DNA of 61,278 bases, the filler included, from Stramenopiles sp. TOSAG23-6 (lineage: Eukaryota): NCBI GenBank assembly GCA_900128565.1. It is 19 parts of 19 records of this genome, joined end to end, with 100 filler letters (N's around TTAATTAATTAA, not from the genome) between each part and the next. Parts side by side here need not be neighbours in the genome. Positions count along the whole stretch, not along the records: positions 51,778 to 54,879 come from LT637652.1; 18 more parts are not named here. One strand, 5' to 3'. Below the pieces are notes generated by a model, which searched no databases, was not told where the DNA came from, and saw only the letters and a program-made list of their open reading frames with translations. Position 1 is the stretch's first letter. Each line of letters starts with the position of its first letter. Positions 7,117-55,066 of this stretch are shown in pieces. Both the position numbers and the translations under genes were made by a program.

Positions 7117-7673
7117 TGAAGTATTGGATGTATGCATTGTTTTTACACGAAAACTCACAAATTGATTTAACAAATAAATTGGTAACTCTTTCAAAACAAT
7201 ACTTTTTTTACATACTTTGCTTCTTAGCAATACTTTAATATGCCTTTTCGAATTAGCTTTATATATATATATATATATATATAATAAGCATGTAGGAGTT
7301 GTATCATATACTATGCTTGTGTCGTCAATAGACCATCGAAACCTGAAGAGGCATGAAAGATTAAGAAAAATATTTCAAAAACTTTGAAATAATGTTTTGT
7401 TAGGTACAAAATTTCGTATGAAAAAAAAAAGGTGTAAAGAAGAAAAAAGTTTATTATTCATAAAACTCTTCTACATTTTTTAAAATGAAAAAATCAAACA
7501 CAGATCACTCATACACTACACACTTATAACTACATGTATACACACACTCACTCATAACGACATTTATACACTATACTCACAGACACTCACAGAAGAACTT
7601 CATTAGGGTTAGGGTTAGTAGGGGGATTGAATACTCCTCTACACACTCAAACACTTATAGAATGAATTTCTTA

Positions 7674-9781: not shown

Positions 9782-11120
9782 AGTTGATGAATTTCGACAT
9801 CAATCGCAGGAGTATAACCAGATAAAATAACGGCGGAATATAGAGCTGATGTATTGTGAAAACATATTTCAAAATGATTTTGTTAGGTAATTTCATACTA
9901 AAAATATTTTCAAAATGGTTTTTTGTTAGGTACAAAATTTCGTACGAAAAATATGTTTTTGATAAAAACGTACATAATCGTACAAGTTGCTCACAAATAT
10001 GTTTTGGTGGTGGTTCAAGAGTTGGCATTTTTTCATTTATTTTATTTGGAAAATTCGATTCTTTTGAATTTGGCAATTTAGTTGTCAATCTAACTGATGG
10101 AGGTATAGAAGTGGATACAATTGTCACCGAATTTACTTGGTAAATTTGGGGTGCTTTTTTTCTATGAGTTGAATTTGAAGTCGAACTCGACGTACTACTA
10201 CTTTTGGATGTTTTCGATATGGTAGATGTATTGTGAAAAAAAAATGTTTTTGGTAGAAAAAATTCGTTAGGTATAAAATTTCGTATGAAAAAAAATAAAT
10301 TTGAAATTCAATGATGAAAACGTACATGCATTCAATTTATTCGACCCGACTGAATCATTATCTGAATCAAGGTCAAAACGGCGAATTGTTAAACTATTTT
10401 CATCTGTTGATATTTTGAGCTGTTTTAGTGAGTTTGAAACGCTTTCTACACGATGTATTATGAAAAAAAAAATTTTTTTTGTTGAAATTCGTTAGGTACG
10501 AAATTTGGTACAAAATATTTTTTTGAAATGAATGATGAAAAACGAACTTGCTTCTGAGGCGTGACAAGAGCAGCCTCTAGGAGATCTGTATGCGCTACTC
10601 CAACCAATTTTGAAGGACCTGAGCATGAAAATGTTGGATTTTTGCTTAATGACTTTGTTGACGGATCAACGTGTGTCGTGGTAATTCGTCTTCCATTTTT
10701 TACACGTTGTCTATTTCGAGAGTTTCCGAGATTTGATTCACAAGGCAAAACCTGAACACTCTGAATCATATTGATGGGTTGACATTTTTGTGAAATCAAA
10801 GGTCTATTACTAGACGTATCGATTGAGGCCACTATTGATCGATCTTGACAATTACTCGGTTCAGTTGCAGCATTTAAAATTCTATTCGAGTGCTTACGGA
10901 CAAAGTTTAGAATAAGGCAAGCCAACTTTGATGGAGGGAGATCCATTTTTTTTTTATTCGCCATTACATCTTCTCGAAAATCACTGCTTGGATTTGGAAG
11001 ACGATTCATAAATGATTGAGGAGCGCTTTTCCATATATGAAGTACTGAGTCACGGAGGGAGGCTTTTCCAGATACAACTAGTGATATAGTGTCTTGGGAA
11101 TCACTGTCCATTTTGGACAT
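9782..11120 (-). CDS. Codanin-1-like protein, 5' part (exons 11120-10548, 10452-10326, 10225-9974, 9848-about 9782)
   Basis: LILNFVRKHSNRIL, RRITTT and spliced RLSALYSAVILSGYTPAIDVEI resemble conserved codanin-1 blocks. Three GT-AT introns keep one open frame. Confidence 0.55.
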
Positions 11121-13082: not shown

Positions 13083-15409
13083 TGGAGAAGTTTGGTTTGG
13101 AAAATGGAATCGTGTTGATGTTGCTATAAAACGTTTTTTTCGTCCAAATGATTTTATTGATGATGAAAATTTACTTTTTGAAGAAAAGACTAGTTTTGAT
13201 GATGAAGAAATCTCAGTTTTTATGAAAACATCAAGACATAAAAGAATTGTATGTTTTTATGGTGCTGGCATTGATTCAGAAGGAAGAGAATTTATGTATG
13301 TTTTATTATTTTTCAATTTCGAATTTTTTTTTTCGTACGAAATTTTGTACCTAACGATTTTTTTTTGAAATATTTTTCTACAATACATGGTGTCTGAATT
13401 TATGGAAGGTGGGGCATTGTCGGATTTATTATGGGCAGAACCAAAAACAGTGATACCATGGGAAATGAAATTAATGTACTGTCGTGATATTGCAGAAGGA
13501 ATGGGTACGTTTTCATCATGAATTTTAATTTTGTTTTGATTTATTTCATACGAAATTTAAAATTTTGTACGTAATATAATTTTTATTTTTTTTTATTCGT
13601 ACCTAACAAATTTCAAATTTTTTTAAATATTTTTCACAAAACATCTTATTTACATAGAAATGGAGTGTTGCATAGAGACCTAAAGACCCCTAATATTCTT
13701 CTTGATATGAATGGAAATTGTAAAGTTGCTGATTTTGGTTTATCTAAAGTATTTGATAAAACTCTGGCAAGAAGAAAAAGTATAGGTTCAATACATAAAA
13801 ATAGTGAAATAGTATGTAATGATGTATTGCTTGAAAAAGAAGAAAAAAGAGACAATTGGTTTTCATCGCTTCGGAATCGAATCAAAACAATATGTAGTTT
13901 TTCTCAAAGTAATAAAAACAATACAAATGATAAAATTGTATCGTTTGATTCAAACCAAAAACAGCAAATAGATCAAAATAAAAATGTAACCAAAATCATA
14001 CCTCATGAAAAATGTATTGTACACAAAAATAATACTAAAACATCATTAAAAACTGAAATATCTAAAAATAATACTAAAAAATCATTAAAAACTGAAATAT
14101 CTAAAAAAAAGAGACCTGACGAAAATGATATAAAGGAAACAAAAGAATCGAATTTTTCAATTAGTAGTAGTATTTCAACACCCACAGTAGTGTTTCATCG
14201 AAGAAAAAAACATTTAAATAATGTATGTTTTCAAAATTGAATTTTTTAATCCATATTTTTTTTCATACGAAATTTTGTACCTAACAAGTTTTTTTTGTAG
14301 AAAAACAAAATATTTTTCACAAGACATGAAACTGCAAGTATAAGAAGAAGTAGTCGTTCGAATGATTCAAATGATTTCAATGATTCAGAAGATTGGAAAG
14401 ATTTTGAACAAACAATGACAACTGGAGTTGGGACTCCTTCTTGGATTCCACCTGAATTACAATCTTCAAACTCAAANTATGTACATTTTCATTTCAATTT
14501 CGAATTTATTTTCTTTTTCATAAAAAATTTCGTACCTGAAAAAATAAAAAATTTTAATATTTCTTCACAAATTATACTCGCTATGGTCACTATATTGATG
14601 TGTATGCATATGGAATTATTATGTGGGAAATTATGACTCAGGAACTACCTTGGCAGGAATATGTACATTTTCATCATTAATTTCAATATTTTTTTTTACT
14701 ATGAAAATTTTGTATCTAACTAAAAAATCAAATTTTTGAAATATTTTCCTAAAAATACAGAATCATTGGGCAGATATTCGGAGAGCTGTGAATAAAGGTC
14801 AACGACCAAAATCAGATAAAGAAGCAAAAATACGATTGAGTGCACCTGTTGGGTATTGTGAACTGATGGAAGAATGTTGGGATGTACGTTTTCATTATGA
14901 ATTTCAAATTTATTTTTTTTAGAAAAAATTTTACCTAATGTTTTTTTTTTAGATAATACTATTTTTTATCATGAATTTCAATTTTTTTTTTTTTCTAAAA
15001 AAAATATTTACCTAATCAATTTCAACATTTGACAACATATTTTTCACACTATATCAAGATCCTTTGAAAAGACCAGATTTTGAAAATATTTTCGACCGTG
15101 TATCAAGAATGTACGTTTTAATTATGAATTTCAAATTAATTTTTTTTTCGTACCAAATTTTGTACCTAACGATTTTCTTTTTTAAATATTTTTTCACAAT
15201 ATATGACTATACGGAATTCAGCGACATCACAAAAAGACAATTTTGCTTTGGATATGATTGATGAAACATCTGAAACTAATAGCTCAAATAATTCTAATAA
15301 TAACAACTCTATTGTGATTAATGTGATAGACACGAAATCTCAATCACNTATTGATGTTCTTTGTGGTAGTAATTGTAGTGATTCATTGATTGCTGACGAT
15401 GTGATGTAG
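13083..15409 (+). CDS. TKL-family protein kinase, catalytic domain and tail (8 exons; 5' end missing)
   Basis: [59 protein letters not shown]. Introns 13296-13388, 13505-13644, 14223-14327, 14481-14575, 14663-14760, 14884-15054, 15111-15204. Confidence 0.92.
13296..13388 (+). mobile_element. Representative introner-like intron (GT-AT); more than 45 full or partial family members in the window
   Basis: GTATGTTTT...TTTCGTACGAAATTTTGTACCTAAC...GAAATATTTTTCTACAATACAT, preceded by exon AT. Confidence 0.75.
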
Positions 15410-25797: not shown

Positions 25798-25959
25798 GCA
25801 CGTTTTCATTATGAATTTCAAATTTATTTTTTTTTCGTACGAAATTTTGTACCTAACAANNNNNNNNNNNNNNNNNNNNNNNNNNNNNNNNNNNNNNNNN
25901 NNNTTAATTAATTAANNNNNNNNNNNNNNNNNNNNNNNNNNNNNNNNNNNNNNNNNNNN

Positions 25960-26204: not shown

Positions 26205-28114
26205 TTATTCTGTGATTTCAGTGGATTTTGATCCAGCAGCAAGTTGTTGATCTTCCATTTTTGTATTTACTGGAACTTCTGTGCCTGTGCCTACTTGGCA
26301 CTTGCTCAGTTTACAATTATCATTAATAACAACATTATGACAAATGATAGATTTTTGTAAGACACATCCTTCAGCAATTTTTACATTATCCATTATAATA
26401 CAATTTAGTATTTGACACTTTGATCCAACTATAATATTTTTCCCTGCAACACTATCCTTTAAAACAGATTTCTGTCCCAGATGAATATTTTCACCAACAA
26501 ATGAAGCACGAACATTTTTACTCCGACTCTGGTCATTCTCTTGATATTTTTTGGGTAATAAGTGAAACCATGAACATTCATGACTCTCCATAGGTGGAGT
26601 GAAATCAACAAATCCAAAATTTAAATCAGAGTAATGCTCAATACTATCAGCACGAGCACAGAAATACTTGGACGATGGCATTAATGTATTGTGAAAAAAT
26701 ATTTCAAAAAAAAAAAATCGTTAGGTACAAAATTTCGTATGAAAAAAATATTAAATTAGAAATTCATATAAACATACATATAGAATAACATCGAATAGGT
26801 TGATGATTAAAATTAGTCACCATGGATGAACCACTCACAAAATTTGCTGCTTCACAGGATCCAGTCACTAAAGATATATATTGGAAAATATTATAGAAAA
26901 AAAATTGTTAGGTACGGAATTTTCATACAAAAACAAAAATAATTTGAAATTGTGTAGAAAAAAAATCAATTTGAAATTGACCCTAACCCTAATGAAAACA
27001 TACATGCCGTATTAAATTTCATATATGATTGAACTACCTTAGATGGTGTAAACTGCGAACAATGTCCAGATATAGAAGAATTATTTTCAACTCTCATTCT
27101 TTCAATGAATTCTTCTGGAAGAGCTTTTATGTATTGTGAAAAAATATATTTTTTTTTTCAACAAATATTTGTCAGGTACAAAATTTTCATACAAAAAAAA
27201 ATAAAAAAAATGATGAAAACATACAAACCCCTAAATTGACGATGAACGAGATAGGGAACAAATTCCTCCTTCAACAAACGAATCTGTGGTAAATACTCAA
27301 GAAGACGGAGAGTCCAGTGTGCAAACACGTACAAATGCATATCCTCGACATCTGAGTGTATAGTCATTGAAGGCATACGTCTTAAAAGTGACTTTGGCAG
27401 CGCAAATTTTGCTTCTCTTCCGGGATCTTCAATGACACACAAAACACGACGTACGTCGTACACATCCAAATTTGAAGTCTTGCTTGTTTCTATTCCAGCT
27501 AAACCAACTATTTCGTGTACTTTCTTTTTCTTTACAGGTACAGGTGTTGCCTTTCTACCTTTCATTTTGCCTGCTGCTGCTTCACTATAGACTTTGTGCA
27601 TCATTGTCACTGCAGCACTTTGAAGTCGGTGCGCATCTACTAGCCTACATAAAACATCTTCACACACCAAATCACCAGCCATTACACAGAAATCTCCACG
27701 AATTTGATCTTTCAAAAAACGCAATACGTCGGCGGAACCTTGTGAAGCATCAACACCAATAACTTCAACCTTCAACTGGAAACAAAGAGATGTTGTATCC
27801 CTATTCGGACTATTTGTATTTTTTGCTACAGAAGTAGTAGAAATCGTCGTTGACCAAGATGAAGAATGTTGCTCAACATATGCTTGTACCGCTTTTGCGT
27901 GTGCAAACTCGACAGCAACCATAACATCTCTGAAACCTGCGCGCTCAAGGTTAGCTAGTTGATATGCTAAGAGTGGCTGATTACACACAGGTAAAAGTAC
28001 ATTTGGAATTGTTTCACTCAAAGGAGATAATACGTTTCCAATTCCAGCAGACATTAATATCGCTTGCAACGGCATCGGTCTACATGATGATAAAGTAGGC
28101 AATACAGATGTCAT
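26205..28114 (-). CDS. EIF2B3: Translation initiation factor eIF2B gamma subunit, complete (4 exons)
   Basis: LQAILMSAG..LLPVCNQPL, GSADVLR, DMHLYVF, PYLV.RQF, IRCYS, C-terminal hexapeptide beta-helix. GT-AT introns 27129-27224, 26874-27003, 26684-26777. Confidence 0.88.
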
Positions 28115-29096: not shown

Positions 29097-29216
29097 NNNN
29101 NNNNNNNNNNNNNNNNNNNNNNNNNNNNNNNNNNNNNNNNTTAATTAATTAANNNNNNNNNNNNNNNNNNNNNNNNNNNNNNNNNNNNNNNNNNNNTTTG
29201 ACGTTTTACTGCACTA

Positions 29217-30119
29217 TTAGACATTGATGAACTTGATTTTCGTTTTTTTTCCACTACTAGTACTAGTACTAGTACTACTACTACTACTGCTACTGCTNCT
29301 NCTACTACTACTACTACTATCGGATGCCATAGGTGGTACATTATCATCATCATAAATATCAAATTTTTTTAAAGCAGCAGATAGACTTGTCTCCTTTTCT
29401 TTATATAATTTTGTTAATGCTTTTAAACCACTCAAACGATTAGTTTCTTTTTTAGCATTTTTCATATTCTTTTTGATCTTTTCCACAGTCTTTTTTGCAG
29501 CTTCAACTTGTTTCCTCGCTTCCCCTAATTTTACCTTTGCTTCAATCAAATCAACCTCTAATTTGTTTAATTTATTTTCTTCTTCAATCTTTTTTTGTAA
29601 AACACCAACCGAATATTCATTGACTTTTCTCATTTGTTTTATTGTAGAAAATTCTAATGCCTTTTTATCATATTTATCTTTACATACAGTTGATAATGTA
29701 TCCAACGCATATTGTACTTTTTTGGTGACCATGCCTACAGGTATTAATGTTTTAAGACGTGACATCTGAAGAATGCATTCGTCGGATTGTGTGACCAAAT
29801 CACTCATTCGTGCAATGGCTTTAATAAGATCTGAAGGTTTCTCTGCTTGAAAGCATTTAAAATACAAAGGTTTTATATCATTTTTTTTGTCAGATTGGTT
29901 TTGTTTCCAATCGATACAATCGGTTTTCATACTATTATTCGGGTAAAGTTTTTTATCAGGCAATACTGCGTTTGTTAAAGGTGATGTATTTTTTGTCTGA
30001 AAATGTTCCTCAATAGCAGCTCGTTCATAAGTGAAACCGTCCGCTGCAACCACTGGATCTTTGTAGAGATCTCGTGTAATTGAACACATTAAGTTTTCTG
30101 GGATATCATCCATTGACAT
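29217..30119 (-). CDS. U-box E3 ligase with coiled coil and Ser-rich tail (identical copy 37877-38779, + strand)
   Basis: IPENLMCSITRDLYKDPVVAADGFTYERAAIEEH..TSPLTN..LYPN. Confidence 0.92.
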   Translation of the reverse strand: MSMDDIPENLMCSITRDLYKDPVVAADGFTYERAAIEEHFQTKNTSPLTNAVLPDKKLYPNNSMKTDCIDWKQNQSDKKNDIKPLYFKCFQAEKPSDLIKAIARMSDLVTQSDECILQMSRLKTLIPVGMVTKKVQYALDTLSTVCKDKYDKKALEFSTIKQMRKVNEYSVGVLQKKIEEENKLNKLEVDLIEAKVKLGEARKQVEAAKKTVEKIKKNMKNAKKETNRLSGLKALTKLYKEKETSLSAALKKFDIYDDDNVPPMASDSSSSSXXSSSSSSSSTSTSTSSGKKTKIKFINV

Positions 30120-30494
30120 GATCAAAAGAAAGAAAATTGATTCAATTGAATACTAGAAAAATAAATGTACTAGTCACAGTGTTCTGAGTTGGATTCTAAA
30201 AAAAGTAAAGATATATATACTACAAAAATGTGACAGTTACGTTTTTTCTTCCGTTTCGGAGATGTCAAAAGTGTTTTCGAGTGTTTGAGTCTTTTCCACT
30301 CTTTATGAAGTTTGGTACATTTTCTCACATGTCGCATTGTATTTAAATGTCTCAAAGAGTACACATCTTTCTCTATGTAATGATATCTTTATTATATTTC
30401 AAAGCATAGCATACTTTTATATTTTGAAAGAAGATAATAGAGTAATAGAGATATTCATTACAACTTGATTTCGTTTCATTATAGTCTAACCGAT

Positions 30495-32333
30495 ATGCCA
30501 CGTAAAGTAATGACACACTCACGAGGTGCTGTTATTCTTCAAAGTATGTGGCGTGGTTGGGCGACACGAAATATTGCGCTTGATGTAGTAGAGTGTGTTG
30601 ATGCGAATGGTAGAGTTATATTATTAGAAACAGATTTCTCTGCTAACAAAAACTCAAGCGATGAAGCAGTAGAGATTTTAGCGTATGAAGCAGATCCACC
30701 GTATGGTGTTCTAGGGCTTTACAACCCTCTTAGTAATCTAGTAGTGCCTATTGATGAAACATCAGTGAATATAGATGTTACTATAGAAACAAAAGAAAAA
30801 GAAAAATTAGATTTGAAAAAGTCATTCAAGAATACGTTAGAATTGAATAATGAAACAAAAAAAAATAATGAATTGAATAATGAAACAAAAAAAAATAATG
30901 AATTGAATAATGAAACGAATACAGATATATCTATTATTGGTATTATTGATAAAAGTGTATATAACAATACTATAGAAATGCCTATAGGTAAAAACATGTT
31001 GAATGATGGAAAACATACAAATTACATACAAGAAAAATACAATGAAACAAAGGAGCAATTAGGGTTAAGGTTACAGGACCAATTTGGATTGGATGAAACA
31101 AATGAAACAAATGAATTAATAGACCAATTGACCGCAGTGGAACAATCATCATTAGGGTTAGGGTCAAATTCATTTCTAGATAATTTGTTACAAGATAATG
31201 AAATTAGAGATTTGCATGAGAATCCTCAAAACTCTGCAACTATAGAAATAGAATCAAAAAAATACGTTTTTTTTTTTTCAAAATTTTTTTTTTTTTAATT
31301 TTTTTTTCAAATTTTTTTTCATACAAATTTTTATATCTAACAATTATTTGTACAACTACGAATATTTTCTCACAATATATTGTAATAATGGATGAAACAT
31401 CAACCGTATCACAAGATAGAACATCAAAAGTAGAAAAAAAAACAAAAACAATAAACAATGAAAAAACAAAAGAATTAAAAAAATCAAAATTAACAAAATT
31501 AACAAAAGATGAGAAAAAACAAATCAAATCAAAAGTCATGACAGAAACATTTCATGTTTTAGAATCAGTTTTGAATGATATTTTATTGTCTCCACGTAAA
31601 CCTGATATTGTTGAACATTTTCCTCTACCTACAACAGTACAAGAATATCGTAATGACAAAGCAAATGCTTTACTCAATGTTCAAAATAACCCTAACCCTA
31701 GACAAAATAATCAAAATAATCAAAATAATCAAAATTCAGAATTATCTCCAATCAACAAAATTGATACATTTGATGATGATAGGGTTAGGGTTTCTAATGA
31801 AATATTATCACCAATAGATCGAAAAAGTATTGATCAAAAATGTAATGAATTACTCAAAAAACATAGAAATGCATTGTATGTATGTTTTATTTTTTTTTTT
31901 GAGCCTTAAAAAAAAATCGAATTTTTTTTTTTTTTAGTTTCATACGAAATTTTGTACCTAACAAATTTTCAAAATTTTTTTTTGAAATATTTTTCCAAAA
32001 TCCAGAATGATTCTGCTATTTTTTTGCAACATAGAAATATTTTATATAATATTGATCATAAAAAAGAAATGTACAATCCTAACCCTAACCCTAGAAGAAG
32101 ACGTCGAAAACGCACGAAACCTTCAACAATTAGATTACAAATGGAAAGAAATAATAATGAACTTCAAAAAAGTTTACGTATGAAATTTGATACAAATTCT
32201 ACAAATTCAAGACAATATAACCCTAACCCTAATGAATCTAGAGAATATTATATTTCAGATAGGCAAAACAGTCATGATAGACAATATAACCCTAACCCTA
32301 ATGAATCTAGAGAATATTATATTTCAGATAGGC
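30495..32333 (+). CDS. IQ-motif low-complexity protein (exons 30495-31261, 31381-31879, 32006-; copy on - strand from 37501)
   Basis: IQ motif AVILQSMWRGWATR; frames are joined by two family introns. Confidence 0.7.
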
Positions 32334-32503: not shown

Positions 32504-34740
32504 AGGCAGTTGAAAGTAAATTTTCCACAGTATCCGTATTTCTGCATGGTGTCATAATGATTTCATTGTTCAAACGAAATTCGACACAAAGTTTAATTTG
32601 TGAATTTGGCGGTTTGGCTATTTTTCTATCAGCATAAGACACGGATGATATTTCATTTTGTTTTTTTCTATCAGCATAAGACACGGATGATATTTCATTT
32701 TGTTTTTGTTTTTGATTTTGATAAAACTTCAATGTTGAATGTTTAGTTATTCTATTTTTGTTTCCATTCGTTTTGTTGTTCATCATAGAACTTGACTGGT
32801 ATTTTGATGTATGGTTATTTGTGGTGAAAAAATATGTGTTGTAGTAAAAAAAATCATTAGACTCAAAAATTAGGTACAAAAATATTTTTACGAAAAAAAA
32901 ATTAAAAAAAAAAAAAAAATTCAATTCAATTCAATTTTGAAAACGTATTGTTTCCAGTTGCTTTGACTTTTCAATACTATCTCGCGGCAGAACACGTTTT
33001 CTTACTAAATGTGATCGAATATTGTAACATATTGCATTATCTTTTCTACATCGCACAGTACACATTTTTTTATTAGAACTCCAACGTAAAATTTTACATG
33101 CTTCCCATGTGTTGTAAAAAATATTTTGATTTATTTCGTTAGGTACAAAATTCACTATGAAAAATAATATTTTGATTTATTTTGTTAGATACAAAATTCA
33201 CTATGAAAAAAAAATAAAATCGAAATCAATGATAAAAACGCACATAATCCATCCCAAATCCCAATATAATCAGAATTACAGGTTGCGATTTCATCTGGCC
33301 AACTTTTTCTATGTATTTTGGAAAAATATTTCAAAAAAAAAATGTTTTGTTAAGTACAAAATTTCGTACGAAAAAAAATCGAATTTGAAAAAAAATAAAA
33401 CATACATCGTTTTCTAAAGCACTGATGGCAGAATACCGTTTCATATTATTTCTTTCAATATTATTATTATGCTTTATTTTTGGCAAAATAGGGCACTCAT
33501 CCTCACTATCAGTACTACTTATAATAATGTTTCGATTTGGTTTTTGCTTTTTTTTCAATTTTTGGAATTTTGTATTTTTTTGCGTTTCGATGTCCTTCAT
33601 CAATTGGATAATTTGTCCTCGAAGTAAAAGTTCGTCTGACGTGTTCGTTCCATAATTAGAATCATTAGAAATACCATTTGCTGATACTACTCCACTGGTC
33701 TTACTTCGATTTATTCTATCCATCGCAATTTGTAAAGTTTTTAAACTTTTTTCAAAATTACCCATATTTTTCAAAATTTTACCTTGGTGATAACGTAACC
33801 GAGATTCATCTAATCGAGATTTCCGCCAATCAAACAAAAATTCAGATTGTAGTCGTACTGCATTTCGACTCTGATAATCTAAATTTAAACGGTGCGCAAC
33901 GAAACATTCATCAAATTGTGCTAATGTGTTATGAAAAAATATTTCAAAAAAATTGTTAGGTACAAAATTACGTACGAAAAATAAATTCGAAATTGAAAAA
34001 AAATTAAACGTACATGCTTCACTAGAAAAACCTAATTTATATAATACTTCACCAAGCGCGGCACAACAACGCAGAAGATAACAACATCGGATTTCATACA
34101 GAGTTGCAGCCATGACATCTGATTGTATATCGCAATCCAGTTTTATCAAAAGTGCTTTAGATAGTTCGAGAGCGTTACGAGCTTTAGAATATTGCCCAGC
34201 GTTAACAAGAATGTAGCCTAAATTCAACTCTGACTGACCTGGAATACAATCAACCATAGGCTTTTCACCCATATGTAGTTTCTCTGCAAGTCGAACACTC
34301 TTTTCAGCTAATAGTTGGGCATTGGTGTGTTTGCCATAATCACTTAAAGATAAGCCGTGGTTTGTCCATAACCGCCACTGTTCCAACTGATCGCTCTGTT
34401 TCAGTTTACCAGATACTCTTTGAAAGTGTTTCCCAGCTAGATCATAATTTTCCAGCGATGAAGTGCGTTGATTTAACGACTTCTGGGCATCTGCCAAACA
34501 ACGATAAGCTCTTGCGAAATCGAGAAGCCTTAAATTTTTTTTACTTTCACTTTTGGCATGTTGAAGAGATACTTTAAGAAGCGATACTTCTTTTTGATGA
34601 TAGTTTTCAGCCTTTTTGAAGATACCCTTGTCAAAGTAAACACGACCAAGTGAATTCAAGCAATCACACTCTTTACCAATGTCGTTTTCTCGCCTGGCTT
34701 GGGAAATTTTACTCTTGAGAAAGAGAATCTTATCATCCAT
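32504..34740 (-). CDS. TONSL: Tonsoku-like (TONSL) protein: N-terminal TPRs, Tudor-like segment, UBL-like segment; 3' end missing
   Basis: ECDCLNSLG..YHQKE..ARAYRCLAD TPR start; IKLCVEFRLNNEIIMTPC..TVENL. Introns 33924-34013, 33311-33405, 33107-33243, 32817-32948. Confidence 0.65.
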
Positions 34741-35994: not shown

Positions 35995-38799
35995 ATTTTG
36001 GAAAAATATTTCAAAAAAAAATTTTGAAAATTTGTTAGGTACAAAATTTCGTATGAAACTAAAAAAAAAAAAAATTCGATTTTTTTTTAAGGCTCAAAAA
36101 AAAAAATAAAACATACATACAATGCATTTCTATGTTTTTTGAGTAATTCATTACATTTTTGATCAATACTTTTTCGATCTATTGGTGATAATATTTCATT
36201 AGAAACCCTAACCCTATCATCATCAAATGTATCAATTTTGTTGATTGGAGATAATTCTGAATTTTGATTATTTTGATTATTTTGATTATTTTGTCTAGGG
36301 TTAGGGTTATTTTGAACATTGAGTAAAGCATTTGCTTTGTCATTACGATATTCTTGTACTGTTGTAGGTAGAGGAAAATGTTCAACAATATCAGGTTTAC
36401 GTGGAGACAATAAAATATCATTCAAAACTGATTCTAAAACATGAAATGTTTCTGTCATGACTTTTGATTTGATTTGTTTTTTCTCATCTTTTGTTAATTT
36501 TGTTAATTTTGATTTTTTTAATTCTTTTGTTTTTTCATTGTTTATTGTTTTTGTTTTTTTTTCTACTTTTGATGTTCTATCTTGTGATACGGTTGATGTT
36601 TCATCCATTATTACAATATATTGTGAGAAAATATTCGTAGTTGTACAAATAATTGTTAGATATAAAAATTTGTATGAAAAAAAATTTGAAAAAAAAATTA
36701 AAAAAAAAAAAATTTTGAAAAAAAAAAAACGTATTTTTTTGATTCTATTTCTATAGTTGCAGAGTTTTGAGGATTCTCATGCAAATCTCTAATTTCATTA
36801 TCTTGTAACAAATTATCTAGAAATGAATTTGACCCTAACCCTAATGATGATTGTTCCACTGCGGTCAATTGGTCTATTAATTCATTTGTTTCATTTGTTT
36901 CATCCAATCCAAATTGGTCCTGTAACCTTAACCCTAATTGCTCCTTTGTTTCATTGTATTTTTCTTGTATGTAATTTGTATGTTTTCCATCATTCAACAT
37001 GTTTTTACCTATAGGCATTTCTATAGTATTGTTATATACACTTTTATCAATAATACCAATAATAGATATATCTGTATTCGTTTCATTATTCAATTCATTA
37101 TTTTTTTTTGTTTCATTATTCAATTCATTATTTTTTTTTGTTTCATTATTCAATTCTAACGTATTCTTGAATGACTTTTTCAAATCTAATTTTTCTTTTT
37201 CTTTTGTTTCTATAGTAACATCTATATTCACTGATGTTTCATCAATAGGCACTACTAGATTACTAAGAGGGTTGTAAAGCCCTAGAACACCATACGGTGG
37301 ATCTGCTTCATACGCTAAAATCTCTACTGCTTCATCGCTTGAGTTTTTGTTAGCAGAGAAATCTGTTTCTAATAATATAACTCTACCATTCGCATCAACA
37401 CACTCTACTACATCAAGCGCAATATTTCGTGTCGCCCAACCACGCCACATACTTTGAAGAATAACAGCACCTCGTGAGTGTGTCATTACTTTACGTGGCA
37501 TATCGGTTAGACTATAATGAAACGAAATCAAGTTGTAATGAATATCTCTATTACTCTATTATCTTCTTTCAAAATATAAAAGTATGCTATGCTTTGAAAT
37601 ATAATAAAGATATCATTACATAGAGAAAGATGTGTACTCTTTGAGACATTTAAATACAATGCGACATGTGAGAAAATGTACCAAACTTCATAAAGAGTGG
37701 AAAAGACTCAAACACTCGAAAACACTTTTGACATCTCCGAAACGGAAGAAAAAACGTAACTGTCACATTTTTGTAGTATATATATCTTTACTTTTTTTAG
37801 AATCCAACTCAGAACACTGTGACTAGTACATTTATTTTTCTAGTATTCAATTGAATCAATTTTCTTTCTTTTGATCATGTCAATGGATGATATCCCAGAA
37901 AACTTAATGTGTTCAATTACACGAGATCTCTACAAAGATCCAGTGGTTGCAGCGGACGGTTTCACTTATGAACGAGCTGCTATTGAGGAACATTTTCAGA
38001 CAAAAAATACATCACCTTTAACAAACGCAGTATTGCCTGATAAAAAACTTTACCCGAATAATAGTATGAAAACCGATTGTATCGATTGGAAACAAAACCA
38101 ATCTGACAAAAAAAATGATATAAAACCTTTGTATTTTAAATGCTTTCAAGCAGAGAAACCTTCAGATCTTATTAAAGCCATTGCACGAATGAGTGATTTG
38201 GTCACACAATCCGACGAATGCATTCTTCAGATGTCACGTCTTAAAACATTAATACCTGTAGGCATGGTCACCAAAAAAGTACAATATGCGTTGGATACAT
38301 TATCAACTGTATGTAAAGATAAATATGATAAAAAGGCATTAGAATTTTCTACAATAAAACAAATGAGAAAAGTCAATGAATATTCGGTTGGTGTTTTACA
38401 AAAAAAGATTGAAGAAGAAAATAAATTAAACAAATTAGAGGTTGATTTGATTGAAGCAAAGGTAAAATTAGGGGAAGCGAGGAAACAAGTTGAAGCTGCA
38501 AAAAAGACTGTGGAAAAGATCAAAAAGAATATGAAAAATGCTAAAAAAGAAACTAATCGTTTGAGTGGTTTAAAAGCATTAACAAAATTATATAAAGAAA
38601 AGGAGACAAGTCTATCTGCTGCTTTAAAAAAATTTGATATTTATGATGATGATAATGTACCACCTATGGCATCCGATAGTAGTAGTAGTAGTAGNAGNAG
38701 CAGTAGCAGTAGTAGTAGTAGTACTAGTACTAGTACTAGTAGTGGAAAAAAAACGAAAATCAAGTTCATCAATGTCTAATAGTGCAGTAAAACGTCAAA
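35995..38799 (-). repeat. Inverted duplicate of 29197-32001 on a separate contig
   Basis: Identical ORFs and identical isolated N positions in the Ser repeat, which indicates a redundant assembly. Confidence 0.9.
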
Positions 38800-45200: not shown

Positions 45201-45253
45201 TCTTTCCTATACCTACTTCTTTAACAAAGTACTTAGGGTTAGGGTTAGAATTC
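42224..45253 (-). CDS. Large scaffold fragment with Tudor/Agenet-like, SH3 and WW domains
   Basis: WKIGDKLEAMW.GEW; LTIKKGDEI..NGW..GWLP; W....DNEGNIYYFNTETGETQWEKP; VKEGDIVDAKW. An N gap shifts the apparent frame. Confidence 0.8.
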
Positions 45254-46180: not shown

Positions 46181-46281
46181 CTTGTATTTTGGAAAAATAT
46201 TTCAAAAAAAAAAACTAAAATTTGTTAGGTACGAAATTTCGTAGTAAAAAAAAACGAATTTGAAAAAAAATTAAAACATAC

Positions 46282-48565: not shown

Positions 48566-51500
48566 TTTTTTTTTTTTTTTTTTTTTGTTAGGTATGAAAT
48601 TTCGTATGAAAAAAAAAATTTCAAAAAAATTTCAAAAAAAAAAAAAAAATTGATGTTGAAAACGTACATGAGTTTGTTTACATCTATACAGAAATCGACC
48701 ACAAGATTCTAATAAAGTACAACAGAGAATAATATTATGATTTTTAAAATCAAATAATAAAAATTTAAGAAATGAAAATGTCATCGAAGGAGGACAAATT
48801 CCAAATTTAGTTAATTGACTGATATACCGAATATTTTTACATTTTGATTCTAATCGTGTTCCTACAAATTTCTTATTTAAATAATAAAATTCTTTTTTCA
48901 ATGCAGCGACTAAGTATTATGAAAAAATATTTCAAAAAAAAAAAAACTAAAATATGTTAGGTACGAAATTTCGTATGAAAACCAAAAAAAAAAAAATTAA
49001 ATTAGAAATTCATATAAAACATACAATGGAGGAACAATATCTGTAAATATTGGATTTAGAATTGCAGCAAGACGAGAATAATAAGGTAGTAATTCTGTCT
49101 GATTTCGTGATACTCTGAAAATAGCTTGGACTAATCTACATGTATTGTGAAAAAAATATTTTTTTTTTATAAAATTTGTTAGGTACAAAAAAAAAATTTC
49201 AAAAAAAATTCTAAAAAAATTGTTAGGTACAACATTTCGTACGAAAAAAAAAAATCGATTTTTTCTGAAAAAAAAAAATAAAAACATACGTCTTGCACTT
49301 CTCGAATTTAGATAACAAAAATCCACTGCAAATTTATCTATACTTCTTTTGGTACAACATTTTGGCAACTCTAATAAAAGCTCTTCTAGAGCTAAAGATG
49401 GTCTTTCTAATGTGACGTCATCAAATAAGGATTTCATACCAAAATTATCATCATCATCATCATCATCAACATCATCTTCATCTTCTGTCTCTTGTTTTTT
49501 ATTTGTAGTTGTTATAGGTATCGTTTTATTACTTTTTTTTACTGAATTTGAACTAGAAAATTGCGATAATGCATATATTGAGAAAACATATTTCAAAAAA
49601 AAAATAAATTTTGTTAGGTACAACATTTCGTATGAAAAAATATTTTGATAAAAATCATAAAAATCATAAAAATGATAAAAATCATAAAAATCATAAAAAT
49701 CATAAAAATCATAAAAATGATAAAAATGATAAAAATGATAAAAATCATAAAAATCATAAAAATCATAAAAATGATAAAAACATACATCATCTAGAGTACC
49801 TGCTTTAAATGATACTTCTGGATTTTCTTTAGGATTATTGCTTATCGATGATGCTCTTAACTTTCGTGCGTTTTCACGATCTTTTTTCTTACCATCATGC
49901 TCCTGTAACAAAATGTCTGGTACTTGTTCAGTAATATCAGCAATTTCTGTATAAAAACTTAATTCATCACCATCAGCAAATGGACCATCTACTGTATTGT
50001 GAAAAAATATTTCAAAATTTTTTTACCTAAAAAAAAAAATTGTTAGGTATAAAATTTACTATAAAAAAAAAAAAAAAAAAAAAAATTGATTTTTTTTGAA
50101 AAAAAAATTTGATTTTTTTTTAAAAAAAAATCAAATTTTTTTTTCAAAAAAAATCAATTTTTTTTTTTTTTTTTTTTTTTATAGTAAATTTTATACCTAA
50201 CAATTTTTTTTTTTAGGTAAAAAAATTTTGAAATATTTTTTCACAATACAGTAGATGGTCCATTTGCTGATGGTGATGAATTAAGTTTTTATACAGAAAT
50301 TGCTGATATTACTGAACAAGTACCAGACATTTTGTTACAGGAGCATGATGGTAAGAAAAAAGATCGTGAAAACGCACGAAAGTTAAGAGCATCATCGATA
50401 AGCAATAATCCTAAAGAAAATCCAGAAGTATCATTTAAAGCAGGTACTCTAGATGATGTATGTTTTTATCATTTTTATGATTTTTATGATTTTTATGATT
50501 TTTATCATTTTTATCATTTTTATCATTTTTATGATTTTTATGATTTTTATGATTTTTATGATTTTTATCATTTTTATGATTTTTATGATTTTTATCAAAA
50601 TATTTTTTCATACGAAATGTTGTACCTAACAAAATTTATTTTTTTTTTGAAATATGTTTTCTCAATATATGCATTATCGCAATTTTCTAGTTCAAATTCA
50701 GTAAAAAAAAGTAATAAAACGATACCTATAACAACTACAAATAAAAAACAAGAGACAGAAGATGAAGATGATGTTGATGATGATGATGATGATGATAATT
50801 TTGGTATGAAATCCTTATTTGATGACGTCACATTAGAAAGACCATCTTTAGCTCTAGAAGAGCTTTTATTAGAGTTGCCAAAATGTTGTACCAAAAGAAG
50901 TATAGATAAATTTGCAGTGGATTTTTGTTATCTAAATTCGAGAAGTGCAAGACGTATGTTTTTATTTTTTTTTTTCAGAAAAAATCGATTTTTTTTTTTC
51001 GTACGAAATGTTGTACCTAACAATTTTTTTAGAATTTTTTTTGAAATTTTTTTTTTGTACCTAACAAATTTTATAAAAAAAAAATATTTTTTTCACAATA
51101 CATGTAGATTAGTCCAAGCTATTTTCAGAGTATCACGAAATCAGACAGAATTACTACCTTATTATTCTCGTCTTGCTGCAATTCTAAATCCAATATTTAC
51201 AGATATTGTTCCTCCATTGTATGTTTTATATGAATTTCTAATTTAATTTTTTTTTTTTTGGTTTTCATACGAAATTTCGTACCTAACATATTTTAGTTTT
51301 TTTTTTTTTGAAATATTTTTTCATAATACTTAGTCGCTGCATTGAAAAAAGAATTTTATTATTTAAATAAGAAATTTGTAGGAACACGATTAGAATCAAA
51401 ATGTAAAAATATTCGGTATATCAGTCAATTAACTAAATTTGGAATTTGTCCTCCTTCGATGACATTTTCATTTCTTAAATTTTTATTATTTGATTTTAAA

Positions 51501-51677: not shown

Positions 51678-51832
51678 NNNNNNNNNNNNNNNNNNNNNNN
51701 NNNNNNNNNNNNNNNNNNNNNTTAATTAATTAANNNNNNNNNNNNNNNNNNNNNNNNNNNNNNNNNNNNNNNNNNNNAAAAAATTTTGTACCTAACAATT
51801 TTTTTTTTTTTAAATATTTTTCCGCAAAATAT

Positions 51833-52377
51833 CCATCAGAGTTATCAAATCGCAATGAAATTTCTGTAGATTTATTTGTGAAACAACTTGGATTGATTGG
51901 TGTTAATTCAAATATAAAGGAACGTGTTGCGCTTGCCCATGTACGTTTTAATCATACATTTTTTTTTTTTTTTTTTTTTCATAGAAAATTTTTTTTTTTT
52001 GGAAAATATTTTTTTTACAATACATTCTCAAAACAAACGACTTCGTTATCTTGCAGATATACATATCAGTAAAGATAATAATGTTTCGATTGATGTTGGC
52101 TTGAAAATGGTTGATGAAAAATCATCTCTTGGAAGCCTTCAAGGCACACAAAATATGTAGGTTTTTTTCATCATGAATTTTTAATTTTTTTTTCGTACGA
52201 AATTTCGTACCTAACAATTTTTTTTGAAATATTTTTTCACAATATAGGATTGATTTTCAGACTGAATTGTATCCAAATGGTTTGACCATTTCTGGTGCCG
52301 GTGCTGGTAGAGAATGTACAGCTAGTGGTGTATTGGCAGATGTTATTGAAATCATTAGAAGAACAGCATCAGAATAG
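51833..52377 (+). CDS. Homoserine dehydrogenase domain, last three exons
   Basis: RLRYLA, SLQGTQNM|IDFQTELY, L.ISGAGAG...TASGVLAD. Introns 51941-52025 (GT-AT) and 52157-52247 (GT-AG). Confidence 0.9.
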
Positions 52378-52535
52378 TTATTTTTTAAAATGTTAAAAAA
52401 AATCAAAAATCAAGAAAGAGTGTAAAAATATTTTTTTTTGTACCAAATTTTTGAACCAATTGTAATTTTAGTTAGGGTTATAAAAAATCGTATACATTTT
52501 ATTCATTTAATTTTGATACCATATAGTTTACTACG

Positions 52536-54020
52536 TCACTGATCAAAACCCCAGGATGATACAATATCATCTTCGATAGTCTGTAAACAACTATTACAAA
52601 TAATAGACTTATGGTCAAGTACACCACAATCATTTATAGTACATGAGTATTGTGAAAAATATTTCTTTTTTCTAGAATTGTTTTTTGTTAAGTATGAAAT
52701 TTACTATGAAAAAAAAAATTAAATTTGAAATTGAAATGAATGATAAAAACGTATTCATCGCAAACATATTTCTTGCATTGAGTGCATGTATTTTTTGTAG
52801 ATCGAAATAATCCAAATATGGCGCCACAGCATTCGCATCTATTTTTTTCATCGCCATCAATTTTCTTCGAAGCTTCATCATCTGATACATTTGATACACT
52901 TCCATCGAATATTTTTCCTTTTGATTTTGAAATTGCTGAATGTAAAGCGTTTATCCATGATTTTGTATCTAAATGCTTTTATCATCATTCGACTGACTAT
53001 ATAAAAATATTGTGAAATCCTTTCTTCGTAATGGAACAATACTTACTGATTTGATTTCACTAACTAGAATTGAACTTGGAGATTTGGCTGTAAACATATG
53101 AGTGTAAATTAATTCTCTCGGTAATAACCAAAATTTTCGATTTCCCCATTTTCCATGAAGTGCATCTCTCTTCTCAAGTGTTCCTGATAAAAGTAGTGCA
53201 TTCTTTGATGCAGTAACGCAACTTTGAATTGCATTTGCCCAATCAGACAGAGAAGATTGATTACTATCTCTCATAATGTATTGCGAACCACAACTAGAAA
53301 TTTCCAGTGTTGTACCATGTATTGTGAAAAAACAAATTACTTAAGAAAAATCGTTAGGTACGAAATTTCGTATGAAAAAAAAATTAAATTAGAAATTCAT
53401 ACAAAACGTACACCAGATGCTCCATTCAATATATTTAAAGTGAGATCAGCCACAATAAAAAGAGTATTAAATCCCTGACGATCTTCTCTTTGGTAACGGA
53501 ATGTTCGTGTTGTTAATATACACTCCCGCTTGGAAAAAATGCGTGTAAATTTACCCTTTTTTTCTAATATTCCACGTTTTACCTCTCTTGCAACGTGAGG
53601 CATTGAAGTATCTACACTCACACCTCTCGTTGCTGACATGCATTTATCACAAGATCTCTGCAAGGTATTTGCTCCCTCTATATCTAATTTATGTTGACTA
53701 CATTCAGCACATACGACGATTCCACAAGCTCTACAGTGGTGTCGTCGGCAACGTGTAGAAAATTGAACTTTGCAAAGACAACAACTTGGACTTGAGATAT
53801 CTGCTTGCCAGTCAACACCTAAATGTCTTGAAGAAATTGACCTTCGCTCTGCCTGCTTTTGGTCACCTTTAAACTTTATCTTTAGCTTCTCTTTTGCAGC
53901 CTGAATGCGTTTGTACATGACTGGCGAATTGATTGTCGTTTCGAAAATGTATTCAGTAACAAAATTTTCTATATTCTTCTGAGATCTTCGCACAATAAAA
54001 GTATCAATTGTCGTGTTCAT
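52536..54020 (-). CDS. FYVE-PH-PH-FYVE-like protein with an apparent frameshift near 52975
   Basis: WQAD..C..C..F..RRHHCRACG.VC..C, two PH domains, CECC..F..CTQCKKYVCDEC..CNSC. Introns 53317-53411 and 52645-52754. Confidence 0.85.
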
Positions 54021-54272
54021 GTTGATGATGCCATCGTGACGTCATCGATGGTCATCGTGTCAAAAATGCCTGCATCAAGTCAGCGTCACAGCGTCAGTCC
54101 ATTCTTAAATTCGTCAGGTTGCTCTAGCTAGCTAGGAATACCGATACCGATAGTTCCGGGTCAACGTGGCGTCAACTGGTACCGCTAGTAACAATCATTT
54201 GTCTCCCATTTGTGCGAGTCGTTGAATTATTACTTCGCATTTGATTTCACAGCCACATTTTCAATCATAAAA

Positions 54273-54816
54273 ATGAAGTTTCTTCAATACATGTTATTCG
54301 CAGTTTCACTGGGAGGGGTATTTTCCGCGAATCCCTCTAACCCTAGTAGTAGTCCTAGTTACATAGATGCAGGACCATTGAAAAAAACAACAATAACTAA
54401 ACCATCTAAAGTTCAAAATGAAAGACAAAGGCAAAAGATGGCGCAAAAGNNNNNNNNNNNNNNNNNNNNNNNNNNNNNNNNNNNNNNNNNNNNNNNNNNN
54501 NNNNNNNNNNNNNNNNNNNNNNNNNNNNNNNNNNNNNNNNNNNNNNNNNNNNNNNNNNNNNNNNNNNNNNNNNNNNNNNNNNNNNNNNNNNNNCCCTCAA
54601 CCCCAACCTGAAGTTACTGACATGTTTGCTAAATTAGTCCAAGATAGTCAAGGCGATAACGGTAGTGAAAAAGAAAAAGATATTCGTGAAGAATTTAATG
54701 AAGCTGCCTTTGGTGTGGATGATATTCCGAGAACACGGACTAGAACGTATTCCCCATATTCTCCTGAGAGTATGGGTGATATATTCGATGTAATTGATCG
54801 TACGAGTCCAATTTGA
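54273..54816 (+). CDS. Small secreted hypothetical protein (internal N gap)
   Basis: Signal peptide MKFLQYMLFAVSLGGVFS; PQPQPE after the gap. Confidence 0.55.
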
Positions 54817-55066
54817 TTTCTATGATGAAGAGTTACATGTATTTTGGAAAAATATTTAAAAAAAAAACTTAAATTTGTTNNNNNNNNNNNNNNNNNNNNN
54901 NNNNNNNNNNNNNNNNNNNNNNNTTAATTAATTAANNNNNNNNNNNNNNNNNNNNNNNNNNNNNNNNNNNNNNNNNNNNAATATTATTTTTTTTATTATA
55001 AAAAATTCGTTAGGTACAATTTTTTTTTCGGGGAAAAAAAATTGAAATTCCATTTTCAAAACTCAC

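Follow-up and report, generated by a model that had tools for sequence, protein, structure and literature searches.

AT-start introns as probable tolerated variants within a repeated, introner-like intron family of the marine protist Stramenopiles sp. TOSAG23-6

The window analysed here, a stretch of 61,278 nucleotides (nt) from Stramenopiles sp. TOSAG23-6, contains a gene at 52536-54041 on the minus strand that encodes a FYVE domain and PH-like sequence and is interrupted by two members of a repeated intron family. The upstream exon (53412-54041) carries the FYVE domain (54.6 bits to Pfam PF01363, which exceeds the cut-off) together with the start of the PH-like part. An exon segment at 52755-52978 encodes the last part of a PH-like helix as well as cysteines one to five of a zinc finger (CxxC-x13-CxxC-x4-C), and the terminal exon (52536-52644, with the stop codon at 52536-52538) supplies the last three (xxC ... 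CxxC). Between these two lies a 110-nt intron, 52645-52754, which starts with AT instead of GT. An earlier note on this DNA had drawn attention to this intron and to two further AT-start donors in the window. Here, we find that all three belong to the same family, and on balance, with due reserve, we favour the view that they represent rare G1>A changes, probably tolerated, which arose in old copies of an intron family of introner-like and U2-like character.

On the minus strand, the insert begins at 52754 with ATACGTTTT and ends at 52645 with CACAATACTC, letter for letter as described earlier. When it is read through, the protein continues as ...KKYVCDEYVF... and then stops (frame end ...CTQCKKYVCDEYVF...stop). 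Excision of 52645-52754 joins the two frames as VCDEC, giving ...CTQCKKYVCD/ECTINDCGVLDHKSIICNSCLQ...stop, also written ...CECCGAIFGLFRSTKNTCTQCKKYVCD/ECTINDCGVLDHKSIICNSCLQ...stop (a slash marks a junction here and below). Only after this removal does the translation show eight cysteines in four CxxC pairs with the FYVE-type finger spacing CxxC-x13-CxxC-x4-CxxC-x14-CxxC, so that the earlier proposal of a completed CxxC (VCDEC) stands. Since the read-through frame stops and the removal of 110 nt completes the finger, the intron is needed; no GT-AG pair that preserves the frame is present in this region. The upstream exon of the finger matches the finger of rabphilin-3A (1zbd_B, E 2.7e-4), a protein that goes on with CxxC at the matching point. 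Against Pfam FYVE_2 the same exon gives a weak score of 22-23 bits, under the curated cut-off of 27.2, and a protein collection search for junction-spanning fragments returned zero candidates for the exon 52757-52978. At about 52970-52980 on the minus strand, the frame of the PH-like exon shifts within a run of four A residues (...NDDKSI and a stop in one frame, KHLDTKSWINAL... in the other), which is probably a one-base homopolymer error of the assembly near 52975.

Inside the AT-start intron, the elements of the family can be recognised in order. The donor ATACGTTTT (52746-52754) corresponds to the family consensus GTAYGTTTT and is preceded by A at exon position -1. A branch-site-like TACTTAAC at 52687-52694 corresponds to the consensus TACCTAAC and is situated 42 nt upstream of the intron end; the two AG dinucleotides between it and the cut are bypassed. 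The 3′ motif TTTCACAATA is followed by C and then by the terminal TC (52645-52657), in line with a family cut 2 nt past CACAATAY. The zinc finger, on which the earlier argument drew, does not fix the exact position of the cut. Because the second exon starts with AT, cuts at AT..TC, TA..CA and AC..AT yield an identical messenger RNA (mRNA), an ambiguity of up to 2 nt, and shifting both ends 2 nt upstream would give VCDSC, which is a CxxC as well. Therefore, the finger settles the length and frame of the intron, not its cut, and it is RNA covering the neighbouring intron that fixes the register.

This neighbouring intron, GTACGTTTT...CACAATACAT at 53317-53411 on the minus strand, starts with GT. 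One DNA run (X3) and three RNA runs (X7, X12 and X13) were aligned onto 51778-54879. In a polyA metatranscriptome, one contig (X13 record 5, 151 nt, depth 2) covers 53517 to 53411 and then 53315 to 53272 with no added letters at the joint, connecting 53411/53412 to 53315/53316 in an mRNA that reads ...TCTGGT/GGTACA.... The joint means that the intron was removed as GT..AT (53411-53317), or as TA..TG one base along. X13 record 5 shares strain variants at 53438/53439 with the DNA run X3 and the RNA run X7, and X3 record 14 continues through the donor, so that the intron is present in DNA. This is direct evidence, from a single low-depth contig, that a non-AG acceptor is in use in the FYVE gene. 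A register shifted by 2 nt (AT/GTA...ATAC/), which would make the introns AT..AC and is suggested by the AT at both ends, is ruled out at 53317-53411 by the same contig. The copies that end in AG (52157, 14663, 31880 and 2427) fall in the same register, and an intron in a GDP-mannose dehydratase (GMD) gene near the start of the stretch is cut precisely at ...CVN/YREAY... in comparison with bacterial GMD. Over 52645-52754 itself there is no independent DNA or RNA contig among those listed for X3, X7, X12 and X13, which is uninformative either way. Metagenome contigs are drawn to the intron core by the thousands (4112 pieces were placed for X3 on 51778-54879), and the polyA RNA libraries also show unspliced family copies from other loci.

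The family as a whole consists of introns of about 90-130 nt, for which a profile built from 27 aligned copies gives 66 matches in 61 kilobases (kb). A set of 36 unique complete copies was curated, and the tallies of intron ends and starts refer to these. The consensus reads AT/GTAYGTTTT, an A/T-rich stretch, TTTTCRTACGAAATTTYGTACCTAAC, a T-rich stretch, (GA)AATATTTTTCACAATAY and 2 nt, or, in short, AT/GTAYGTTTT ... CRTACGAAATTTYGTACCTAAC ... TTTTCACAATAY plus 2 nt. Both outer motifs are strongly enriched in the window: RTAYGTTTT occurs 57 times with 7.5 expected, and TTTCACAATA 16 times with 0.7 expected. A branch motif could be placed in 33 copies. Its distance to the 3′ end is 31-52 nt for 32 of these and 132 nt for the remaining one, and a T-rich tract comes after it; in 27 of the 33, the tail between branch motif and cut is free of AG. 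At the 5′ end, 33 of the 36 copies start with GT (copy 14481, with the donor GTACATTTT, is counted here) and three with AT. At the 3′ end, six dinucleotides occur within one family, namely AT (27), AG (4), TT (2), GT (1), TC (1) and AA (1). The earlier statement that both termini are relaxed is thus borne out. The introns interrupt genes for a kinase, the FYVE protein, an eIF2B-like protein, NCKAP1, a MIT-domain protein and homoserine dehydrogenase, and this presence of many similar copies in unrelated genes is what characterises introners.

Reading frames agree with the register seen in RNA. With an acceptor 2 nt past the motif, removal of the intron connects frames free of stops over 40 codons to either side in 22 of 29 cases, against 2-4 of 29 in the other two phases. 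With flanks of 25 codons, the frame is open in 32 of 36 copies, including all three AT-start copies; the remaining ones are 46281, 36116, 27003 and 14481, the last of which had been entered one base off. For 46182-46281 on the minus strand, the family register gives an AA end and a TGA in one candidate frame; moving the cut on by 3 nt (...AAGAT/) would give an AT end. Donors that differ from the consensus by one base also stand in open frames, as GTTCG (10547), GTGCG (33243), GTTTG (55525), GTAGG (52157), GTACA (14481, 14663 and 45711) and GCACG (25798, cut off by a contig end). Since several donor positions vary, position +1 is not visibly better protected than +3 or +5. Some copies have additional internal units: in 13505-13644, 50954-51103 and 9849-9973 the branch region is duplicated internally, with TACCTAAC occurring a second time, and 50458-50670 contains tandem TTTTTATSA-like units. 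A true GT-AG member is GTAGGTTTT...CACAATATAG at 52157-52247 on the plus strand, in the same register, within a convergent homoserine dehydrogenase gene. The exon downstream of it matches homoserine dehydrogenase (7m92_A, E 2.1e-8), and the upstream exon alone matched nothing in the PDB.

Besides the copy in the FYVE gene, AT-start introns are found at 31262-31380 on the plus strand (AT..AT, 119 nt, 18.2 bits) and at 32817-32948 on the minus strand (AT..AT, 132 nt, 16.9 bits, the most diverged of the three). As the earlier note had it, their ATACGTTTT donors join in frame, and with the family register open frames of more than 50 codons per side are connected. The GCACGTTTT donor noted at 25798 is likewise real and belongs to a family intron on the plus strand (25798-25859) that ends at a contig break. 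All three AT-start introns are recovered near full-length by a profile made exclusively from 24 GT-start copies, with E-values of 1.3e-9 (33.2 bits) for the copy in the FYVE gene, 5.7e-5 and 1.4e-4, and all motif modules of the family can be aligned in them; they are members of the family. The same profile gives 27 full-length matches, 22 of which score 38.1-64.7 bits and the lowest five, with the 16.9-bit copy among them, 13.8-29.4 bits. Recovery at low scores by a GT-only profile indicates that the three are real copies, albeit relatively diverged ones. Their phase is correct in each case, for which the chance is about 1 in 27. An origin of AATACG through a 2-nt deletion or a slid element fits at 52754, where AT flanks ACG...TC, and fails at 31262, where 117 nt would be out of frame.

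A further property shared by these copies concerns the base in front of the intron. Exon position -1 is A in all three AT-start copies and in only one of 32 GT-start copies, which mostly have T (29 of 32; Fisher p = 0.0006). This coupling was unexpected, and it makes a simple base-call error unlikely. The supposition that A(+1) arose by amplification, sequencing or assembly error and that the true donors are GTACGTTTT does draw on the state of the data: the assembly is a low-quality draft with apparent indels and a difference of about 1% from three other runs, and the 9-mer ATACGTTTT taken alone is within chance (four matches, one of them in an inverted duplicate, with 1.2 expected; 3 of 100 shuffles reach four). 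However, an error of about 1% per base predicts roughly 0.4 such changes over 36 copies, the same change is seen at three independent loci, and the A at position -1 of each would require a second, adjacent error. We therefore regard an artefact of this kind as very unlikely. The earlier note had also raised the question of whether the first and last intron bases covary. The counts do not demonstrate an A..C covariation: a final C occurs in one of three AT-start and in none of 32 GT-start copies (p = 0.086), and the other two AT-start copies end in T.

The quality of the window bears on how these copies are counted. It is AT-rich (GC content of about 21-41% per 2 kb) and composed of contigs of about 3 kb chained by 100-nt spacers, which are N's with a TTAATTAATTAA core, so that adjoining contigs may not be genomic neighbours. 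Numerous contig ends fall within the repeated intron. At least one contig recurs as an inverted copy with 100% identity (29197-32001 equals 38799-35995); hence, the AT-start intron at 36616-36734 on the minus strand, identical to 31262-31380, is not an independent copy. Doubled-inverted or palindromic contigs are also seen at about 16.2-19.4 kb and 48.6-51.7 kb, where the same intron contexts recur on both strands at 17.7/17.9 kb and 49.8/50.5 kb and point to palindromic contigs; such pairs look like amplification or assembly chimeras. At shared positions, the assembly differs by about 1% from metagenome contigs and from three other runs (for example at 53438/53439 and 53864). The genes of the stretch (FYVE, PH-like, kinase, MCM, kinesin, NCKAP1 and seipin) are eukaryotic, a protein atlas search likewise went no further than Eukaryota, the relatives of the MCM exon reach at most 48% identity in a protein search, and seawater metagenomes and metatranscriptomes contain DNA of this stretch as well. 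Inside contigs, TTAGGG/CCCTAA occurs as short dimers or trimers at 7603, 21761, 26981, 31152, 32221, 32290, 45233 and 58285, with another at 36833 in the duplicate contig; one of them lies within the intron 26876-27003 and one (45233-45244) adjoins a contig end. Repeats resembling CCTAAAAA are found within an intron near 85-240 on the minus strand.

A different explanation is that splicing of the AT-start copies fails or is inefficient: G1 would have changed to A in three old copies, and the genes would be recent pseudogenes, truncated forms or minor alleles whose frames have not yet decayed. The AT-start copies are indeed among the most diverged of the family, the FYVE gene without its last exon would still encode the N-terminal FYVE and PH-like parts, and the same gene has the A-run frameshift near 52975. 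The frames 3′ of 31262 and 32948 are of low complexity, and among the listed contigs no RNA covers the AT-start junctions. Nevertheless, the phase is correct in three of three copies, and the 35-codon terminal exon of the FYVE gene retains all three remaining cysteines with FYVE-type spacing. This gene is also transcribed, with its other intron spliced in an environmental polyA library, and the family accommodates numerous other deviations of termini and donor while frames stay open. Taken together, dead copies appear to us a rather unlikely explanation, to be kept in mind.

The borders of the introns provide a hint of how the family spread. In 21 of 36 copies, the last two bases of the exon equal the last two of the intron. 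Among them are two TT/TT cases and one GT/GT case, which account for every TT and GT acceptor of the family. This 2-nt border repeat resembles a target duplication and introner-like spread. However, six GT-start copies depart from it, with an AT intron end and a non-AT exon end. The aligned copies have no clear terminal inverted repeat, and no transposase was seen within the stretch, to which this observation is confined. Repeated borders also invite a comparison with the structured, nonconventional introns of euglenids and diplonemids, which would be removed free of the spliceosome through pairing of their ends. PMC12621601 and PMC6221363 describe introns there with extensive pairing between the ends and with donors not complementary to U1, which have non-AG 3′ ends and carry short direct repeats at the borders (for the last, PMC12621601), and the mostly non-AG 3′ ends and repeated border bases of the present family are similar. 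In contrast to those introns, the family has a U1-type donor and no predicted end pairing: RNAalifold predicted 0 conserved pairs for 20 copies with 6-nt flanks. Strong conservation of the donor-like 5′ border, the branch-site-like motif and the T-rich tract also speak against such an origin. Pairing of the donor with the internal CGTAC/CATAC or with ATAC was considered as well and showed no consistent covariation on inspection of the copies. Spliceosome-free removal thus seems to us scarcely probable.

With respect to the splicing machinery, the earlier note had left the choice between a modified major and a repurposed minor spliceosome. For the latter, the family would be handled by an expanded, co-evolved minor-type (U12-like) machinery, and A or G at +1 and the free 3′ dinucleotide would be inherited U12 traits. 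Some resemblance exists: RTAYGTTTT agrees at six of nine positions with the U12 donor consensus RTATCCTTT, and the branch motif TACTTAAC of the 52754 copy agrees at seven of eight with the U12 branch consensus TCCTTAAC. Donor and branch motifs are both rigid, and the non-AG ends include GT-AT and AT-AT, types known among U12 introns. On the other side, positions +5 and +6 are GT and never CC in all 36 copies; the donors ATACGTTT match RTATCCTT at only five of eight positions, in agreement with the earlier remark that this donor is absent. The distance from branch motif to intron end is 42 nt in the 52754 copy and 31-52 nt in 32 of 33 copies, with a T-rich tract, whereas the rule for the U12 branch site TCCTTRAY is about 10-26 nt and no tract. 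In addition, GTAYGT and TAC(C)TAAC are equally near to the yeast-type U2 consensus, and Rfam gave 0 matches, and with that no minor small nuclear RNA (snRNA), within the stretch, which was the only DNA searched. U12-type and U2-type AT-AC introns are said to have been described by Dietrich, Incorvaia and Padgett in 1997 and by Parker and Siliciano in 1993. With these, the family shares a permitted A(+1), relaxed 3′ dinucleotides and long rigid motifs, as well as A1 with a last C in the 52754 copy. It differs from them in that the donor is not RTATCCTT, the branch distance is too long and the A1-C pairing is not general, as two of three end in T. A minor-type machinery is therefore improbable in our view: of the two options in the earlier note, it gained no positive evidence, as branch distance and tract look U2-like, and a modified major spliceosome would be the likelier.

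Judged by the features of U2-type introns, the family has a GTAYGT donor, a TACTAAC-like branch motif, a pyrimidine-rich tail and removal from mRNA, the last observed for one GT-start copy. It departs from the GT-AG or GC-AG termini of that class, with AG in four of 36 copies and AT..TC in the 52754 copy. The signals look like those of a U2 intron of yeast type whose acceptor rule has changed, and our best guess is that the major spliceosome, possibly in modified form, acts on them.

Comparable deviations have come to light in other lineages. Noncanonical introns from marine single-cell genomes were reportedly presented by Gawryluk et al. in 2016, without transcript support. In Fritillaria, Henriet is said to have found in 2019 that 5′ ends are mostly non-GT; unlike there, 33 of 36 copies here have a 5′ GT and the deviation is mainly at the 3′ end. 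For Fritillaria borealis, PMC13326754 argues that the non-canonical introns use a modified U2-type spliceosome, and changes of U2AF and of snRNAs have been shown there. The present family would be alike in that the core major spliceosome would act on introns that break the GT/AG rule throughout the genome, with altered recognition of the 3′ end. Introners are transposon-like intron families of Micromonas, Aureococcus, dinoflagellates and others, as far as the accessible portions of PMC12130899, bioRxiv 2022.06.06.494994 and PMC7789003 describe them. Like these, the family comprises many near-identical short introns in unrelated genes, with their own splice signals, a short border repeat and contig breaks inside; unlike what those portions describe, it shows no terminal inverted repeat or transposase, has a repeat of 2 nt that is intact in 21 of 36 copies, and ends in AT in three quarters of them. 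The introner elements of Amoebophrya, in the part of PMC7789003 at hand, resemble it in their marine protist host, repetition, non-GT/AG ends and direct repeats at the borders. They differ in having inverted repeats of 8-20 nt as hairpins and no clear terminal signature, against no predicted structure and a rigid GTAYGTTTT and branch motif here (PMC7789003). Literature on GT-AT introns in protists, non-canonical splicing in single amplified genomes and stramenopile single-cell genomes does not describe the family, nor do the portions available of PMC5269757, PMC3998028 and PMC5778133. Likewise, in the excerpts covering repeated or noncanonical introns of Amoebophrya, euglenids, diplonemids and Fritillaria, none has this motif set or a GT..AT default, and the motif TACCTAAC led only to unrelated papers. 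Public metagenome contigs gave 0 stretches for the AT-start pattern and 0 for the 20-nt core motif. Part of the family-level picture may already be in print.

Combined, the evidence suggests the following picture, which we propose with the reserve expressed at the outset. One highly repeated, introner-like spliceosomal intron family would interrupt most genes of this AT-rich marine protist. Its introns would carry their own signals, namely the extended yeast-like donor GTAYGTTTT, TACCTAAC, a T-rich tract and CACAATAY. The 3′ cut would fall 2 nt past CACAATAY whatever the two bases are, giving AT in three quarters of copies and sometimes AG, TT, GT or TC, and the first base would be A in three old, diverged copies. 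As cuts would be placed by the register of these long internal motifs, the AT-start copies are likely cut at unchanged positions; at 52645-52754, this would restore the VCDEC finger. In the simplest reading, the AT-start elements form no separate intron class, and A(+1) would be one among a number of deviations that older copies tolerate. Family membership and correct phase are established for the three copies, as is non-AG removal in RNA for one GT..AT copy; that the AT-start copies are themselves spliced is inferred. A more far-reaching version, which we regard as possible but doubtful, is that the spliceosome of this lineage ignores terminal dinucleotides altogether. UAYGUUUU and CACAAUAY plus 2 nt would then set both cuts, GU..AU would be the default, A(+1) or a last C would be tolerated, and the coupling of A(-1) with A(+1) would mark a distinct donor docking.

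Several points weigh against the picture of tolerated variants. In known spliceosomes, G1>A stops the second step unless the last base changes too, and two of the three AT-start copies have the final T that is usual in the family. The assembly is poor, with contigs of about 3 kb and linkers, palindromic duplicates, an A-run frameshift near 52975 and about 1% mismatch. The case for the A(+1) and for splicing of the AT-start introns is drawn from this one assembly, with no RNA or independent DNA contig listed over any of them, and the register comes from one 151-nt RNA contig of depth 2. The frame test reports intron length modulo 3 only and so does not fix the exact cuts at 31262 and 32948, downstream of which the frames are of low complexity and lysine-rich. 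Finally, the copies are related by recent descent, so that the scarcity of AG in the tails and the conservation of the motifs may stem from common ancestry and not from function.

If the boundaries hold, the family would represent a case of intron spread through a repeated element. The repeated intron also breaks short-read assemblies, and gene predictors that assume GT-AG would overlook the majority of the genes in this organism or place them in wrong frames. Under a modified major spliceosome, one would expect the U1 5′ end and the U6 ACAGAG region to pair with AUGUAYGUUUU, U2 to match UACCUAAC, and minor snRNAs to be absent. Given correct boundaries, this uncultured marine eukaryote would have retained textbook donor and branch signals and mostly given up the AG acceptor, and sometimes G(+1) as well, providing a natural experiment on which contacts in the catalytic centre of the spliceosome are indispensable.

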